DNA from: Okamejei kenojei
Lineage: Eukaryota
Length of the DNA stretch: 64,000 bases
Reading direction: 5' to 3'
NCBI GenBank assembly: GCA_035221665.1
Contig: CM069174.1
Span: 9,672,001 to 9,736,000, forward strand
Shown: one piece after another, positions 47,080 through 57,830 of the stretch
Layout of the letters: each line of letters starts with the position of its first letter
Numbering within the stretch: the first letter of the stretch is position 1
Notes under the pieces: generated by a model
Database searches by the model: none
What the model was told of the DNA's origin: nothing
The model's input: only the letters and a program-made list of their open reading frames with translations
Translations under genes and position numbers: made by a program

Positions 47080-48530
47080 TTTAGCCAGAAACATTTGGCT
47101 CCAGACCTCATTGCAGTCTTAGCCCAAACATGAAAAAGAGTAAAATGCATTAGTGTGGTACAACCTACTGGCCTTAAAAGCCAGCATTTGACTGGAAATA
47201 GCATCAAGAAGCCTTGATAGCGTTGAAGTCACAGTGAAAAAACAGTCCAATGGCTAGAGTCAATAATAATATTATTCCACTTGCCGGAATGAACTCAGTT
47301 CCAATAACTCTCATGAATCTTGACACCATCCAGGACAAAGCAGACTGCTTGAGTGGCACCCTATCCATCATCCTAATAATATACCTGGCACAAAAGAATA
47401 TGATTGGGTTGTTGTTGAAGAAGCACCAGGACATCACCACAGGACATTTCCTCAGGTCAGTGTATGCTAGGCCCAGCCATATTTATACAGAGATGCCAAC
47501 CCTAAATTTAGTTCACAGTAACATTCAACCCATTTGTCCGTAACAAATGGGGTTAAATGCATTTCTCTCTGTAACATACTCACTTGGGGTTGTTGCCGGC
47601 GGCTATGCGCCTGCGCACTGGTGCAGATCAGCGGGCTGCCGGCGGGCGGGTGCGGCACATGCGCACTTGGCAAGGTTGCCGGCGGGTCTGCGCCTGCGCA
47701 CTGGGTGGGGGTGGGGGGGAGGCCCGGTGATGGGGCTGCCGCGAGCGGCCGGCTGGCGGCAAGAAAGTGCCGCTGATCGCGCGGGCCGGCGCCGCCCGGG
47801 CTCTGGGCCGGGCGTGGCTGCGAGCTGCCAGGCTGGCAAACCGGGGGCACATGGCGCCGGCGTTCACCACGGGAGGAACACCGGCGCGGCGGTGTTCCGT
47901 AACAGCATGTTTGGCTGCCGGAACACCGTAAAAAGGTTATTTCGCCGGGACAAAATACGGCGAATCCGGGACACTTGGCATCTCTGTTTATACCATCAAT
48001 AAACTCCTTTCCATCATAAGATCAGAAGTGGGGATGTTTCCTGATGATTGCACAATTCTCAACTCCATGATGATTCCTCAGATAATGAAGCAGTCAATAT
48101 CTACATGCAGCAAGATCTAGACTACATTAGACTACATTAAGGCATGTGCTGATGAGTGGAAAGTAACATACGTGCCAAAAAAATGCCAGCCAATTATCAT
48201 CACCAACACAAGACAGTCAAACCATCCAATCTTAACATCAGCATTGCTACCATTGGGACTGCACAATCTACATCCTCAAGATCACTGTCAATCAGGTACT
48301 TAACTAGAACAGTCACATAAATACTGTGCTTGCAAGAGAAGAGCAGAGCAGAGGCTGGGTATCCTGCCCGAGTCACTTGCTTCCTAACACTCTAAATACA
48401 CTCCACTTGCCGGAATGAACTCAGTTCCAATGACTCTCATGAATCTTGACACCATCCAGGACAAAGCAGACTGCTTGAATGGCACCCTATCCATCATCCT
48501 AAACATTCACTCCCTACGCTGCCAAAGCGT
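47080..48530 (+). mobile_element. Old L2/CR1-group LINE RT fragment interrupted by a MITE
   Basis: Degenerate PQ.SV.GP and IRSEVGMF.DDCT (YADD-type) motifs, QQDLD.I..AD.W. Confidence 0.7.
47488..47986. mobile_element. GC-rich hAT MITE with 6-bp TSD
   Basis: 12-bp TIR CAGAGATGCCAA / TTGGCATCTCTG; perfect TSD TTTATA (47482-47487, 47987-47992); internal blocks shared with 54290-54365. Confidence 0.88.
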
Positions 48531-49264
48531 ATCTGCCAAGAGCAGATCTTTTGGCAGATATGCTTATCTGCCAAAGCTACTGTGATGTTATGTTCTCATG
48601 ATTGCAGTGGTTTAAAAAAAAAACCTCACCAATCTGAGATGGGAATTGTAACCTTGGCGACATCCAGTAAATTGAATATAAAAATAAAGTGGTACATTTC
48701 TGCTTTTACTTTTGTTCACTCTATTTAATATTGTCCATTAAATGCGTTGTCCAAACTTCTATTAATCAGAATAACAAAGGACAGGAGGTATCCAAATATT
48801 AACCAATTCTTGCCTTCATATTATGATTCGTTCTGCATCCTTCATAACTTTCACAAAGTATATTCCAGATCATAACAAATTGTTGGGTAAAATATATTCA
48901 CATTTCACCTCATGTTCTTTCACTATTAATCCTCAATTTATTTTAATCAAAATCCTTAATGATATTGAACATTGCTTTCAACTTTATCCTTAACTTCCTC
49001 TAAAGAGAACACTCTGCTTTTCAAGTTGCTCCATTTAATCAGTTTTGCACTGTCAAATAAATTATTTCTGAATGTTTTGACATACTTACTAAAATCCAGT
49101 ACCTCGGACCAATTATTTATAAAGGCTTATCATAACCTCCTGCAGTCTATGCTTATAGATACAATCCAGGATTCCATATGCTGCCTTGAGCAGCTTCAAA
49201 GATCTGTTGGGGAAGTCTTACCACCCTCCTGGGCCTGGAGGGATTGAGTCATAAGGCTGCATAA

Positions 49265-49875
49265 GTCATATGCTGGAGCTGTTTTCACTGAAGCATGGGT
49301 GGTTGAGGGGTATCCAAACAGAAGTATATAACATCACCAGGTGGATGGTCTTTTCCCCCAGTATAGGGGAATCTAACACTAGAGGTAGAGGGCATAGATT
49401 TAAGGAGAGAGGGAAAGATTTAAAAGGGATCCAAGAAACAGGTACAATTATAAAAGACATTTAAACACGCATATGGACAAGAAACGTTAAGGAGTCACAC
49501 AGGGACGGATTAAGACCCATAGAGGCCCTAAGCACTTAAAAGATTTTTGTTCCCCCATATATATGTAATTCAAAATATAAACAATAATAAACCATAAAAT
49601 AAATTTTTATTTTTCAAAATGAAACAAAACTAACAGTAAGATGGAAAATAATGTTTATTTTTGTATACTTCCACTTTATTTATATTTGAAAAGTTTTCTC
49701 CTACTTTCTGTGGTGCCCCCTTCCCTTGATGCCCTAAGCACGTGCTTATTTTGCTCAATGGTTGATCCAGCCCTGAGTCACACACAGGTAAATGGGACTT
49801 ACTTAGACATCTTAGTCAGCATGGACAAGTTGTGTCGAAGGCCCCGTTTCCCTGCAGTATAATTTTGATTCTATA
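49265..49875 (+). mobile_element. Old CR1 3' fragment (host of a MITE)
   Basis: LELFSL...TRGRGHRFKERG; tail gaaggccccgtttcc. Confidence 0.7.
49500..49775. mobile_element. hAT (Tip100-like) MITE
   Basis: TIR CAGGGACGGATTAA / TTGATCCAGCCCTG; flanking duplication agtcaca. Confidence 0.8.
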
Positions 49876-50056
49876 ATTAAATGTTGTAACTGTATAGTAC
49901 TGTACTCAAAGCTTAGCTCGATCCGCAAATCTGGTGTGCAGATCTTGAGTACTACAGCCAGAATGTGCGATTTCCTGGATTCTATGCCCTCTGCTGATTC
50001 TTGACATCACGCAAAGTGAATTAATTAAGCTGAAGTCTGACTTTTGTGGCACTTAC

Positions 50057-50166
50057 CGAATACTTGTCCACCCAATGTTTCTCCTGAACCACTTGACCTT
50101 TGACCTCATCAGTCTTGGTCCATACATGGAAAAAGCCAAGGTGAAGCACTGATGCATCACCTCTGG
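50057..50166 (-). other. Candidate exon of an unidentified minus-strand transcript
   Basis: catattcag|CCAGAG...TATTCG|gtaagt; two frames open throughout. Confidence 0.4.
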
Positions 50167-50900
50167 CTGAATATGGTTCCAAATACTTCAACATGGCCAT
50201 GAAATCTCACACTGGCATTATTAAGAAGTTTAATAATTAACTCTTTACAACATTCACAATTAACTCTCCGCAACGTTCACAATTAGATGTTGTTGGACTC
50301 AATCTAACCCATTATTGTGCATTGCCTTGTTTTATCCACCCTCCTGAAACCCACACTTCCCCAGGTTGATTTTTATTTGCCAGTTCTGTACCATCACAGC
50401 CAGTTCTTACATATCTCACTGTAGCCTACCAATTTATTTTTGTCAACCCCACTGCTGATTTTGGTAAACTTAACCAAACCATTTGTTTCAAAGCCATTAA
50501 TGTATTTTAAGAAAAGGGGCCACCCAGTACTGTACACAACCCTCCATTCACTAAACCTTTACTAATTATTTCCCTTTATCTTCTCTCACGGAGCCAACTT
50601 CCCTTGGATCCCATTTGCTTTAATATTCATGACTTATGCACTTTTGTCAAACACCTTACCAAAATTCCTGAACTCTACATCAAGCCTGTTCCCGCCACAC
50701 CACTCAACCAATCACAAAATACAGGAGAATAAACATACTCACTTGTAAACCTGTTTACAAAGCACCGAGGAGCAATTGACCAGTTGGACAACCCTCAACC
50801 TTTCAGGTTGTACATGTGAATGGTCAATGGTTAATGTAGCGATGTTATAATACCTACCTTCAGCGGTGCCGCAGTTCTGCCACTGGCCGTGTGCGCAACT

Positions 50901-50933
<33 letters not shown>

Positions 50934-51364
50934 GGGGGGCGGGATTAAAATCCAGTTTTGTACCGCTTATCAGAGATGGATTTCCTCGGGCTGCGAGTCG
51001 ATGTAGAAAATTCGATCGGACTTCCCTTCCCGTTTTTATTTTTATTTTTTATTTTTTTTAAATCGCTGTACAATTTAATAGTTTGATTAAAATAAAAGGC
51101 GACTTCTAACGCCCTCAACGCCTACAACGTGACGGATCGCAAAAACGGGACAAAACAAAGGGCAAGTCCAGACCTCCCAACATTTGATTGTCAAAATTCA
51201 TAATATTTCCCCTCAAAATTCATATTTTTTTAATGAAAATTCATAATATGTCGCGGCGCCCTATTCGGGGGTCCCATGTCACAAATTCTAAATTGTGAAG
51301 AAGTATTTTAAATGCCAAAAATGTGAAAAAGGTACATGTATGCTGAAACATTTATAATTCTTTG

Positions 51365-53951
51365 TTAAACTTTGATAAACTTGGCACTAGACTCACCTTC
51401 ATGTACGTATGTATACACATGCAGCTCATCATGCAGCTCATCATTTAAGTTTGCTGTAAACTCTGATATAGTCACTTTTGCACTTTTGCAAAAGTGCATT
51501 GAAAACTTCTGTTCATAGCACACAGATTTTTTTGAGATCATTGACTGCTTCTGTACAATCAAGTCACTTAGAGTATTTGTTTTCATGCTGGATCTCATTT
51601 CAGTCTTAGTTTTTGTGACAAAGCTGAAAATTCGCTCACACTCCGCATTGCTGTGAAAGATAACAAGGACTGACTTCATGAGTGTTGAGAGATGAGGATA
51701 TTTCTCATGCTGGGTGGATCCTTCATGTTTCCAATGAGATGCCACTGCTTGTCTACTCTTTGGCAAGTTGAGATTTCCTCTGGGAATTCTCTAACTGGAA
51801 AGAGATGAACTCTTTCTCTAGTTCATCCAACTTTCAGCTTGCTGAAGCCAAGCACTGCATTCTATGTGCAAACTTCACAGATGAGAATGTCATTGCTTCT
51901 CTCTTTTTAATGTCAGCAACCTCAGCATGCCTTAGGAGGTCATCAGATAGAGGAAACTTGGCTAGCATGTAATCTAATGCACGCTTGTAGAAGGCCCTCA
52001 CTTTGCTGAAGAACATGACCCTGTCTATGTCTTGATGGTCACTGAGAAATTCTCTGGCAGAATTACCAATGAATAGTTCATCATCAGTTCTTTGGTGATC
52101 CTTATTGCATATGGTACTTGAAGCAAAGAGTGCTGCTTGATTGACATAGGCTTAACTAGATAAGACATGAGTTTCCTTAGAGTGGACATCAGTGTCTGGT
52201 GAAGAACATGTATACAAGGATCATCTCTCTGCAGAAGAAGATTTGCTTCATCAAATACTGGGAAGAACAGTACTTAGAAATAAGCAGTACAGTTTGGTTG
52301 TTTTGTCATTCAGAGCCAGACATACTCTTTCAAGTCTTGATTTCCCAGCACTGAACATGCTGAAGCAGTCTTCTGTTGGGTAGGTTTTGAAGTAGCTTTC
52401 TTAGAAGAGTTACATGCAGAAGAAGAGGATGATCCAATCAATGGCTTTTGTGCTGTTTTGGATGTAAGATCTGTCTCAGATTTTTTTGTTAGACTCTTCT
52501 GTGATACTGTTTGAGGTACATGGTTTGTGCATCTGTCCTGCCACAGCTACTGATGATTTCAGTTTAGATGATGGTGCCTGACTATCAGACTTTTGTGTCA
52601 TAGACTTCAAAGTTGGTATCTTGAACTGTTTGAGAAAGGCAGAAGAAGATGAAGATGATCCACACAACATATTTGATTTAGTCTTTGATGGAGCAGATGG
52701 CCAAGAACTAGATGTACCTGTTCTTTTCTCTGCACAAGATGATTTAGGGTGGGCAGACTGAGTTAACAGAGGCTTCTTGGCACCACCTGTAGCTGATTTG
52801 GCTTGGATGTTGCATTCACGGTAGTTTGTGACTGACCCGTTTTCAAAATGTTTTCATGACAGGAGGATCTCCACTACCCTTCCTCTTTTGTGCTGTTGGC
52901 TTCTTCTTACCACCCTGCTGTAATTCGCTATTGAAGAAATCCGTCAAAGCTGGCCACAACATCAAAATCCTGTCAATGCATGTTTTCAGTGACAACCACC
53001 TTGTGCTCACATGTTTGAGGATTTTTCTTACCTCTGTGTTGTGCAGGCACTGAAAGTCTCTCAGTACAGCCTTTCTCTTGCTACTTTTGTCGAGATAGTA
53101 ATATATATCTATCAATGTCTCTTCAACATGGATGGGCAGTTCACTTTCTGCCTTCTCAGCTGCCAAGTGCAATAGATGACATGCACATCCAACGATATAC
53201 ATGTTTGGATTTACTTTCAGGAGATGCGAGGCTAGTCCGGTCTTGAGACCCTGCATAACATTGCATTGTCTGCTCCAAATGAAAGACAGTTATTCCAGGT
53301 GTTTCTCTTTGTCAGCTCTTCATCCAGCAACTGAAAAATTTGGGCAGCAGTCGACTCTCTGCACTCGGCATACAAAGTAACACAGTAGATACACCACCCT
53401 TTGAGTTATCAAAATAACGTACAACAAGGGGGTAGAGTTTAACATCATCCATATCACTACTCATCAGTAGCTAAACTGTACGGTCCACTTATCATAGCTT
53501 CTGTTATTTCTTTTTCGGTGTCTCTCGCTAAGGTTTGGACAATTGATTTAGTCTTTGTCTGTCCGCAATGGAAATCTTTGGCTACTGGATTGTTGGGAAA
53601 CATCTTGCGAAGCAAAGGACCCATGTGGTCAGCTACGGCAAAAGGCAAATTATGTTCTACAACAAACTTGTAAATAATACTTCAGCATTAATGACACTGA
53701 AATCTTGTGAGAAGCTCGAAAATGATGTCAACTTTGGTATTTTTTGGACACTGCAACTGCTTACAATGCTTAGCAGAGTTCACATGTTTCACACAGTCAC
53801 CTCGTCCTGCATGACTAATCACAAAATCGGCACCACAAATACTGCAATGTGCTTTAAATTCACTTACTCTGCTGGGTCCAAGACATGGAAACTCCTCCCC
53901 ATATCTACGTAGATAACGTTGGTACTGCTTTGCTTTTTTAGATGAAGCCAT
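51365..53951 (-). pseudogene. hAT transposase with frameshifts and stops
   Basis: N-terminal Zn finger CSIC...H...H; SLATDE (first D); GADNA (second D); CACH; STRWLS; HSNAECERIFS (catalytic E, dimerization domain). Confidence 0.92.
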
Positions 53952-54174
53952 CTTTATAAAATGTTGAATCTAACTTCCATTTGCAAAGCTACTTGTACTC
54001 ACAAGTGACAGTCGACAGTACTGTTTGGATCTGGATTGTGTTGTAACCCCGCCGGACGCCGCCACTGACGCGTTAAATTTGGGTCGTCGAGGCAAGATCG
54101 TGTTGCAGAGTCAATGAGTAATGCATGTCTCTGGGCCGGCGTGGCGTGGCTCGAAATGGCGCCAGGCCCGCAAA

Positions 54175-54298
54175 CCCTCCCCCACTGCGCACGCGCGGCC
54201 ACTGGGGCCCGGCAACCCTCCCCCACTGCGCACGCGCGGCCACTGGGGCCCGGGCAACCCTCCCCCACTGCGCACGCGCGGCCACTAGGGCCCGGCAA
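54175..54298. repeat. Three tandem ~41-bp GC-rich units in the transposon 5' subterminal region
   Basis: ccctcccccactgcgcacgcgcggccact(g/a)gggcccgg x3. Confidence 0.9.
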
Positions 54299-55689
54299 AG
54301 TGCCGCTGATCGCGCGGGCGGCAAACCGGGGACAAACGACGCCGGCGTTCTCCACGGGAGGAAGAATTTTGCGGGATAATTAGGGTAAAAAGCGGGATGG
54401 CGGGAAGGGCACCTAAAAAGCGGGAATATCCCGCCAAAAGCGGGATAGTTGGGAGGTCTGCAAGTTGTTTATTTTACACATAATCTTGCTTCTTGGGGTG
54501 GCTTTAATCTAATTTTACGTTGCGAAAATGTGATTTGGGTCCCATACGAATCTATCCCTTTCAAATTCACTGCAAATGCAACGTTCCAATCCAGAAACAC
54601 GCTCTCGCAAGATGATTAAAATTCTCTTTTTTTTTTTGGACAATCATGTCATAAGAACGTCTATATTTTGTGTAATTGTATAATCAATATTTTTATACTA
54701 AATATACACAACAGCTTTAGCCACATTTATTGTGCAAAAAATAATAATTTTGATTATATTGAAAGTTGATGTTTCTAGATTAATTTATGGGAATTTAAAC
54801 ATTAAATTCCTTCCATCTGGCATATGTTCATAGTGAGATTTAAAAAGCATGTGAATTCTTGTGTGAATGGGATTAGTTTGTTATTTGGATACTTAGGCTA
54901 TTTAAAACAATTATCCTTTTCTTAAGAAATTGAATATACAGGACATTGTTAATGGGAAAGTAGTGGGCAGAAAGGCATGTCATGCGTGGTTTGAAGAGCA
55001 AAAACTTGTAGTTTACAATGCCAAATTTGAAAAGTTGAGGAAAAACAAGGTGTACAGTTGCTTATTGGTTACAATCTGAGGAGTATGATGATGCTACTGA
55101 TTATGATATGCCAATGTACCAGCTAGCAACTAATCTGCTCCATAAAGATTTGGTCTAGTGCTAGAAATTGTAATTTATTTACCTATCTGTTACGGACATA
55201 CAGCATATAATACAATAATACTAAACTTCTGATCTTGAGAATATCACATTTTTTAATTTTCAAGGCAGTCTGGATGTTTATTACTATTTCCGTCACAACG
55301 GTCAATTTTGTAATTAACGACAATTAGGTAACTATCTAATTATATGCTTTAATTTCAGGTCATCCAAGTAAGATGTTTCATATTTGTTTCAAAATGCTTC
55401 AATCTATAATAACTGAAAATGTCATTCAGTTCTCTTAATTTTTTAAGAAAGTTATGGGCTTTTGACTGTCCTCGATCACAGCTTTTGAGTTAAGTCGATG
55501 GAAAAGCAATAGGGAACAAGATGCTAATTTCCGAGTATGAAAATGGCCATAACTTTTTAATACTGAAGATTTGAAAGTGAATAAGGTGTCAAATTAAACT
55601 TATTTTTATGCTTTATCTGATGTGATAAATTGCAGACTTGATTTTTTAAATCTCAAATTTTTGTAACATTAGTTAATGTTGGCCTATCC

Positions 55690-56500: not shown

Positions 56501-57830
56501 CCGATGGGAAAGGGGAGAAGTGTGAAACCGTACATCTCCAGATTCAGGGAGAGTTTCATCTCAGCTATTATCAGGCAACTGAACCATCCTCTCACCAACT
56601 AGAGAGCTGTCAGACCTCCCATCTACCTCATTGGAGACCCTTGGACGATCTTTGATCAGACTTTGCTGGCTTTACCTAGCAATGTTACAACATTTTGAGA
56701 TTTAAAAAAATCAAGTCTGCAATTTGTCCCATCAGATAAAGCATAAAAAGTTTAATTTGACACCTAATACATTTTCATATATTCAGTATTAAAAAACTGA
56801 TTTTCCTGATTTTCATACTCGGAAATTAGCATCTTGTTCCCTATTGCTTTTCCATTGACTTAACACAAAAGCTGTGATCGAGGACAGTCAAAAGCCCATA
56901 ACTTTCTTAAAAATTAAGAGAACTGAAATAAATTTTCAGTTATTATAGATTGAAGCATTCTGAAACAAATATGAAACAATCTTATTTGAATGATCTGAAA
57001 TTAAAGCATATAATTAGTTAGTTACCTAATTGTAGCTAATTACAAAATTCAATTACTAGATCTAAACATCTATCAATTTCTTAAGAAAAGGTTAACATTT
57101 TTAAATAGCCCAAGTGTCCAAATAACACTCACAAGAATTCACAATATAACATGATTTTTAAGTCTCATTGTCATGAATTTATAGGCCAAATGGAAGGAAT
57201 TTAGTGTTTAATTCCCATAAATTAATGGCCATTTAAATCATCTTGTGAGTGGGATTTTGTGGAACGCGATCGTTTGATACGTTGCATTTGCGGTGAATTT
57301 AAACCCCATATCAGCAGGAAAAATACTGCCGGTTCGTATGGGGCATAAGTCACCTTTTCGCAACATGAAATTTTGATTAAAGGCATCCTAAGAAGCACGT
57401 TTATATGGAAAAATAAACGGCGTACCTTGCTTTGTCCCGTATGTGAGATCCGCCCTGTTGTCGGCTTTAGAAGACACTTTTTAATTTACTCCTGCTATTA
57501 AATTATCCAGCGTAGTTTTAAAAAACTTCAGAGGACGTATGTCGGAGCGATTTTTCTTCAGCAACTAAACAGCCTGACAAAGATCGATTTGAACAGGCCG
57601 GAGAAAACAGCATTTTAAACCCGCCCCACTCTCAAAGGCGCCAAAGTCGCGCACATGGGCAGTGACAGAACTGCAGCGCCGCTTAAGGTAAGTTTTGTAA
57701 CATACCTATATCATGTATATGTACCCTGACTGGGTCGATTGTAATCATGTATTGTCTTTGCACTGCCTGGTTAGCACGCAACAAAAGTTTTCCATTGTAC
57801 CTCAGTACACATGACAATAAACTAAACTTA
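56500..57830 (+). mobile_element. Rex1/L2-type LINE 3' tail split by MITE copy 2
   Basis: ttatcaggcaactgaacc...ctttacc [MITE] tatcatgta...gattgtaatcatgtattgtcttt...tgacaataaactaaact. Confidence 0.65.
56677..57708 (-). mobile_element. hAT/Ac-like non-autonomous element (copy 2), inverted relative to copy 1
   Basis: TIR TAGCAATGTTACAA / TTGTAACATACCTA; reverse complement aligns with 50837-51160 plus 54461-55671. Confidence 0.82.

Follow-up and report, generated by a model that had tools for sequence, protein, structure and literature searches.

Two distinct, mostly 6-bp hAT families in a window of the Okamejei kenojei genome and a likely nested origin of the blocks they share

The 64,000-nucleotide stretch of Okamejei kenojei contig CM069174.1 analysed here (the window) carries two hAT transposons, a miniature inverted-repeat transposable element (MITE) and a 3.3-kb element that codes for a transposase, which we assign to two families, A and B, respectively (Table 1). 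Examination of their termini agreed with the original prediction: the MITE has a perfect 12-bp terminal inverted repeat (TIR) between two TTTATA copies, with no match at 8-bp windows, and the longer element has a perfect 13-bp TIR between CAAGTC and CAAGTT, with a G after the right copy. The subterminal repeats of the MITE and of family B are AAAATTCATA and GCGGGA, respectively, and the internal blocks that the two elements were said to have in common are real, one of 23 nt at 100% and one of 44 nt at 89% identity. In the reading that we consider likely, two distinct, young hAT families with mostly 6-bp target-site duplications (TSDs), likely of the hAT6 type, are each represented by one copy in the window, and the shared blocks are what is left of a family-A MITE in the 5' end of family B. 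What is new here is the family-specific slippage in TSD length and the nested origin of the shared blocks.

Table 1. Features of the two hAT elements, in window coordinates
Feature	Position	Strand	Long family-A copies
Left TSD of MITE, TTTATA	47482..47487		
Family-A MITE, 499 bp, 12-bp TIR CAGAGATGCCAA	47488..47986		
MITE end from 3' end of family-A transposase-coding element, 95-97% identity	47488..47577		L121, L126, L130, L131, L137, L139
MITE interior, GC/CpG-rich, with blocks common to 3.3-kb element and two TGCGCCTGCGCA motifs	47578..47895		
MITE end from 5' end of family-A long element, 95-98% in four copies	47896..47986		
Right TSD of MITE, TTTATA	47987..47992		
Left TSD of family-B element, CAAGTC	51163..51168		
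Family-B hAT element, 3292 bp, 13-bp TIR CAGACCTCCCAAC	51169..54460	-	
Single-exon transposase gene, family B	51445..53951	-	
Family-A MITE remnant in 5' end of family B, in place of ~430 bp of native B 5' sequence	54130..54363		
Three 41-bp tandem repeats, TGCGCACGCGCG in each	54173..54298		
Native family-B 5' terminus, GCGGGA subterminal repeats and TIR	54365..54460		
Right TSD of family-B element, CAAGTT, one mismatch	54461..54466		

The ends of the MITE match not the 3.3-kb element but a 5.8-kb family, A, represented by a 5786-bp copy (L126) that carries the MITE's TIR and a 7-bp TSD and matches MITE bases 1-90 and 409-499 at 96-98%, as well as by L121, L130, L131, L137 and L139. BLASTN of the MITE against family B, by comparison, returns the interior block 344-391 only. 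How these blocks came to lie in family B is suggested by other copies of that family. L017 retains a native 5' region without MITE sequence, that is, an empty site; L014 carries a whole A-MITE in this region with CATAATA on both sides; and in L015, L016 and L018 a second A-MITE lies 5 bp from there, with TATACA on both sides in those copies that keep the two ends. In L010 and L012 the upstream 430 bp of family B and the left part of the MITE are gone and the MITE's right TIR is kept, and in the type found in the window that TIR is gone as well. Among 18 long family-B copies 13 are of the deleted and five of the long type, and shared substitutions follow the same long-5' versus deleted-5' split, with one that L010, L012 and L013 have in common with the long form. 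Furthermore, A-MITE sequence is present in 24/24 and 34/35 two-ended family-B copies sampled by position, and the 41-bp repeats of the window element recur in 44 of 64 stand-alone A-MITEs.

We therefore propose a history in which a native family-B element of the L017 form would have been hit by A-MITEs at two positions separated by 5 bp (L014; L015, L016 and L018), a deletion would then have joined family B's upstream sequence to the MITE interior (L010, L012), and a second deletion may last have removed the MITE's right end to give the window type. Family B was presumably mobile after its 5' region had been replaced, because deleted-type copies have different TSDs, and each MITE family would have been moved by the transposase whose ends or subterminal sequence it carries. 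Some observations weigh against this account: L008 carries marks of both 5' groups; the tree of family-B copies does not resolve them (0/15 branches starred), which leaves element structure and a small number of shared substitutions as the basis for the proposed sequence; and the pairing of transposase with MITE is presumptive, and families D (see below) and A have the 12-bp TIR in common.

The original prediction had taken the MITE for a non-autonomous partner of the 3.3-kb element, from which the shared blocks would derive, and the 23-nt and 44-nt blocks, TIRs that agree at 10/13 bases and the 6-bp TSDs of both elements would all fit such a partnership. We nevertheless regard it as very improbable, given that the MITE's 90-bp ends fit family A and not B, that the subterminal repeats of the two elements differ, that native family B (L017) lacks the blocks, which occur only in TSD-flanked MITE insertions or their remnants, and that family B has non-autonomous derivatives of its own with B ends. 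The preferred reading remains a family-A MITE nested in family B. The MITE interior (bases 91-408) is itself absent from the family-A long element, and its source was not found, no search for a parent having been run.

At the nested site of L015, L016 and L018 the MITE left end and its TSD are repeated head to tail two or three times. We also observed a B-ended MITE subfamily made up of 44 bp of the B left end, most of the A-MITE with an intact right TIR, and the B right end; copies of it with the other family's internal end are L143, L150, L153, L155, L157, L159, L163, L164 and L166. In the window type the A-MITE remnant lies 180-410 bp upstream of the ATG, and the 5' region has 60% GC and three GCGC-N2-GCGC motifs, the native family-B 5' region having 43% GC and no such motif. 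We take this motif to resemble an NRF1 site, any promoter role being only putative.

Both elements are young and multicopy. The left 24-mer of the MITE has 2215 exact matches in the genome assembly (G000) and that of family B has 547, mostly from non-autonomous derivatives of 0.5-1.2 kb, with no match to the reversed control in either case. Identity among the best 40 MITE copies is 98-100%, and the long family-B copies (n = 18) differ from their majority by 1-42 substitutions over 2723 columns. Indels are about as frequent as substitutions in these copies and 183 of 210 are 1 bp in length, so many frameshifts, including those of the window copy, may be assembly errors.

A protein search of the same assembly, from which 20 places were fetched, uncovered further families at 40-50% identity. 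The family-A protein has 41-43% identity to the family-B protein (P0001) over the structured part and falls into a separate, supported clade. Family C is marked by the TIR CATACCTGCCAAC and 545 ends, and family D by an A-like TIR, other subterminal sequence and 250 ends. The four families do not form one clade among the homologues in a quick tree (rows projected onto P0001, insert omitted, no named outgroup), which suggests separate origins, with no donor named. The coding region of family A is broken by gaps with GT..AG boundaries, as read by eye. The transposase genes of families A, C and D (L126, L127 and L123) appear interrupted in an intron-like manner, and that of family B (L008) is a single open frame. 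In three long family-A copies (L130, L131 and L139) the 5' end is 81-86% identical to the MITE end, with a CCCTG end in L130 and L131, which suggests a subfamily with asymmetric TIRs.

To compare target sites across the families, we collected two-ended copies from 94/120 family-A, 76/100 family-B and 22/30 family-C loci and from 1/30 short family-D loci; because the latter were too short, 20 family-D places were refetched longer and yielded another 18 (17 distinct), for a pooled total of 210. Two family-D copies about 97 kb apart (L424 and L425, G000:C2) have identical flanks and thus represent a segmental duplication rather than two insertions. TSDs are perfect at 6 bp in 146 copies, at 7 bp in 25, at 8 bp in five, at 9 bp in one and at 5 bp in one, and four are ambiguous (two 4/6, one 4/6/8, one 4/7); random flank pairs (50,000) gave perfect 6-, 7- and 8-bp matches at frequencies of 0.00076, 0.0001 and 0.00006. 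The distribution departs from the 5 bp of hAT5 (1/210, at a damaged end), from the 8 bp of canonical hATs such as Ac, Buster and Tip (5/210 unambiguous and perfect) and from the fungal hAT7, with 7 bp as a rule (25/210 here, and animal named homologues); it agrees with the 6 bp of hAT6 (146/210 perfect, 31 unambiguous at 7-9 bp).

The predicted 6-bp duplication is thus the rule, but not a strict one, as 31 of 143 resolved A and B copies have 7-9 bp. With the 4/6/8, 5-bp, mismatch and no-TSD rows left out, TSDs longer than 6 bp make up 17/85 (20%) of family A, 14/58 (24%) of family B, 1/20 (5%) of family C and 0/17 of family D, and families A and B together differ from C and D (Fisher p = 0.007, post hoc). 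Family D, with 17/17 at 6 bp, serves as a same-assembly control against error. Among the six-mers, A is found at position 2 in 63/146 and T at the second-last position in 64/146; the seven-mers have A2 in 14/25 and T(n-1) in 16/25, and one base further in the counts are nine for A3 and four for T(n-2). The bias keeps to both edges and the added length falls in the middle, so that a given active site probably recognises one half of the target, its own. Several features of the data weigh against variable spacing as described here: a TSD is lacking in 15 of the 210 copies and carries a single mismatch in 13 (at 6 bp in 11 of these), and A2 and T(n-1) are not favoured in the five 8-bp TSDs. In addition, members of a family are partly dependent observations, and the families were compared after the data had been seen. 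Candidate 8-bp-TSD relatives considered as an in-genome control (L132, L133, L138 and L140) had no usable TIRs.

By analogy with Hermes, the DDE transposase (D164, D231, E779) would cut at the TIRs and join the ends to the target at staggered positions, as a rule 6 bp apart, with slippage to 7 or 8 bp in about one fifth of the insertions of families A and B, the two active sites perhaps reading half-sites at a loose spacing. The 7-9-bp TSDs could also stem from gap repair after a 6-bp stagger, from a second, cross-mobilising transposase or from assembly error, and indeed the assembly is rich in 1-bp indels within these repeats and several related transposases are present together in the genome; a perfect 7-mer, however, requires that one further base agree between the two flanks (chance 0.0001), only 1/37 copies of families C and D in the same assembly exceeds 6 bp, the 7-mer target bias is still anchored to both edges, and a 7-bp TSD is also seen in an unrelated record (L312), all of which makes these sources unlikely. 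Building on a loosely spaced stagger, we tentatively suggest that the hAT6 stagger may not be fixed, that sister families may differ heritably in slippage from 6 to 7-8 bp (0% to 24%), with each active site anchored on its own target half, and that family B may have gained in spread once the MITE of a rival family had put a CpG-rich, promoter-like cassette in place of its 5' region.

In the window copy the transposase gene is disrupted, with 21 small indels, 17 of them 1 bp long, and nine substitutions relative to the majority. The search for intact copies that had been recommended recovered an open 842-amino-acid frame in 2/28 loci examined, L008 and L010, the former with its two TIRs and a perfect 6-bp TSD as well. 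L010 (G000:C4:119108800) lacks a TSD, and its left end, CATAGCTACCAAC, looks foreign, which may reflect a hybrid end or a rearrangement. P0001 matches the Pfam domain Dimer_Tnp_hAT (PF05699; E 3e-7), and a profile of 93 sequences matches Hermes (E 2e-11), with D164, D231, W322 and E779 aligned to Hermes motifs and with C259, H262, R321 and W322 (the CxxH and RW motifs of the insertion domain) invariant in 93/93 sequences. The AlphaFold model of P0001 has a mean predicted local distance difference test (pLDDT) score of 82.3, with residues 363-533 mostly below 50, and its best structural matches are Hermes (Foldseek E 2.6e-8; VIA Z 23.8, root-mean-square deviation 3.7, 402 aligned). The hAT C-terminal domain, Hermes-like fold, DDE residues, CxxH/RW motifs and short TIRs with subterminal repeats place the elements in the hAT superfamily, and together with the TSD table they support the earlier assignment to a hAT6-like group with 6 bp as the rule.

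Directly after the RW helix, P0001 has a disordered Ser/Thr/Lys-rich stretch of about 195 residues, which ranges from 4 to at least 199 residues (median 77) across the 93 homologues. An intron as its source is not favoured, given the open frames of L008 and L010 and the coding stretches, of differing length, that homologues have in this position. No RNA data set was listed among those carrying the element. Three read sets, RNA by our guess but possibly DNA, cover the whole family-B element including its ends, with no splice joint.

P0001 has 181 homologues at E <= 1e-10 among 7994 scored, with identities of 34-56% among the best 120 of the 181. Among the matches listed, the named ones come from teleosts, echinoderms, a spider, a tick, molluscs and a nemertean, and none carries a hAT6 name. 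A scan of a metagenome collection added 79 loci at 32-42% identity, 33 of them with paired TIRs of the form CA(G/T)A..CAA(C/G) and 28 of these 33 from one assembly; their TSDs are perfect at 6 bp in 25, 4/6 in one, 6 bp with a mismatch in one, 7 bp in one and absent in five. The 6-bp TSD is therefore a trait of a wider lineage, down to 32% protein identity. No relatives in viral contigs turned up in the scan, and the suggested search for horizontal transfer, made among organism-labelled records, returned no near-identical copy under another organism label, the best protein matches being at 45-56%. Within the lineage, carp and pipefish transposases (P0007 and P0008) lie very close in the tree (branches 0.05 and 0.11), and horizontal transfer between teleosts is possible. 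The WLWD01 contigs (L315-L369) hold many near-identical full-length copies of 2.3-3.0 kb from several families; their 6-bp TSDs differ, and the copies seem to stem from a very recent burst.

According to the papers cited here and below, the hAT norm is an 8-bp TSD with TIRs of 10-25 bp, one hAT6 name being given without sequence (PMC3942097), and transposition proceeds by DDE cut-and-paste, in which a zinc finger reads subterminal repeats and staggered joining produces the TSD (PMC10368747). hAT5 and hAT6 were named in Repbase Reports in 2007 and are placed among Blackjack-related animal hATs (PMC12730594, citing Kapitonov and Jurka 2007, Repbase Reports 7:1192-1204 for hAT6), and hAT6 is a standard annotation class (bioRxiv 10.64898/2026.07.01.735963). 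hAT6 is already named in a cichlid annotation (PMC8497601) and is thus not new to vertebrates. hATx-6 elements with 8-bp TSDs (PMC9804982, PMC8721813) have no bearing on mixed TSD lengths. The literature searched, which lay outside Repbase Reports and most subscription journals, contained no description of mixed 6/7/8-bp TSDs in a hAT family or of hAT6 in cartilaginous fish.

The families described here resemble hAT6 by description, in a hAT transposase, an animal host and 6 bp as the rule, and differ in the 7-9-bp length of 20-24% of TSDs in families A and B. The hAT6 name is a provisional one, drawn from TSD length and the hAT protein, which counts against it. The lineage might instead have arisen independently of named hAT6 within Blackjack-like animal hATs: TSD length has shifted repeatedly among hATs, with hAT5, hAT6 and, in a separate fungal clade, hAT7 (PMC12730594), and the matches listed for P0001 include no hAT6 name. 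Against this, hAT6 is placed among the animal, Blackjack-related hATs by the same source, and Repbase would hardly have overlooked a lineage that extends, as this one does, over teleosts, echinoderms, arachnids and molluscs and has 6-bp TSDs in all cases where ends were found; we find an independent origin doubtful and retain hAT6 as the likely class.

Hermes (PMC10368747) shares with family B its fold, DDE triad, CxxH/RW motifs, N-terminal zinc-finger-like region and short TIRs with subterminal repeats, but has 8-bp nTnnnnAn TSDs versus the 6 (7, 8) bp and nAnnTn bias seen here, and about 17% identity; the disordered Ser/Thr/Lys-rich stretch after the RW helix is a further difference. hAT5 and hAT7 are likewise hATs with TSDs under 8 bp (PMC9004415, PMC12730594), although hAT5 has 5 bp and hAT7, a fungal group, clusters with Ac and Tam3. 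Animal Pack-TIR elements (PMC8277862) also combine interior DNA foreign to the autonomous partner with many loci and different TSDs; here host-gene capture would be hypothetical, the source of the MITE interior not having been found, and the passenger of family B is another transposon's MITE.

TSD length serves as a fixed diagnostic of superfamilies, and pipelines that require 8 bp for hATs miss these elements, of which there are thousands here; hAT6 itself seems to be described mainly in database reports. With an intact, single-exon 842-residue enzyme at hand and sister families that differ in TSD fidelity, what sets the hAT stagger becomes directly testable, and a variable stagger, if true, would offer a natural series for TSD-length evolution between hAT5, hAT6, hAT7 and canonical hATs. 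The nested history is also a warning that common internal sequence is no proof of an autonomous/non-autonomous relationship.

The single mismatch between the TSD copies of the family-B element had been ascribed to CpG decay of the right copy, which is plausible and has indirect support from contigs that join across the site and read CAAGTC followed by G or A; a sequencing error is possible as well. These contigs are probably paralogous copies of the host repeat. The exact empty-site pattern for this insertion has 0 matches in G000, and local BLAST for the empty site returned paralogues at 67-74% only. The element lies inside an older dispersed repeat (50840-51168 and 54467-54620), a 74% paralogue of which is found in the window at 57333-57525. 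The MITE, in turn, sits in sequence resembling a long interspersed nuclear element (LINE): removal of the MITE and one TSD copy brings a LINE-type reverse transcriptase motif, LGPAIFIPSINSFPS, back into register, by eye and against the window's own LINE frame, and this host sequence contains a 101-nt direct repeat at 98% identity (47276-47376 and 48402-48502).

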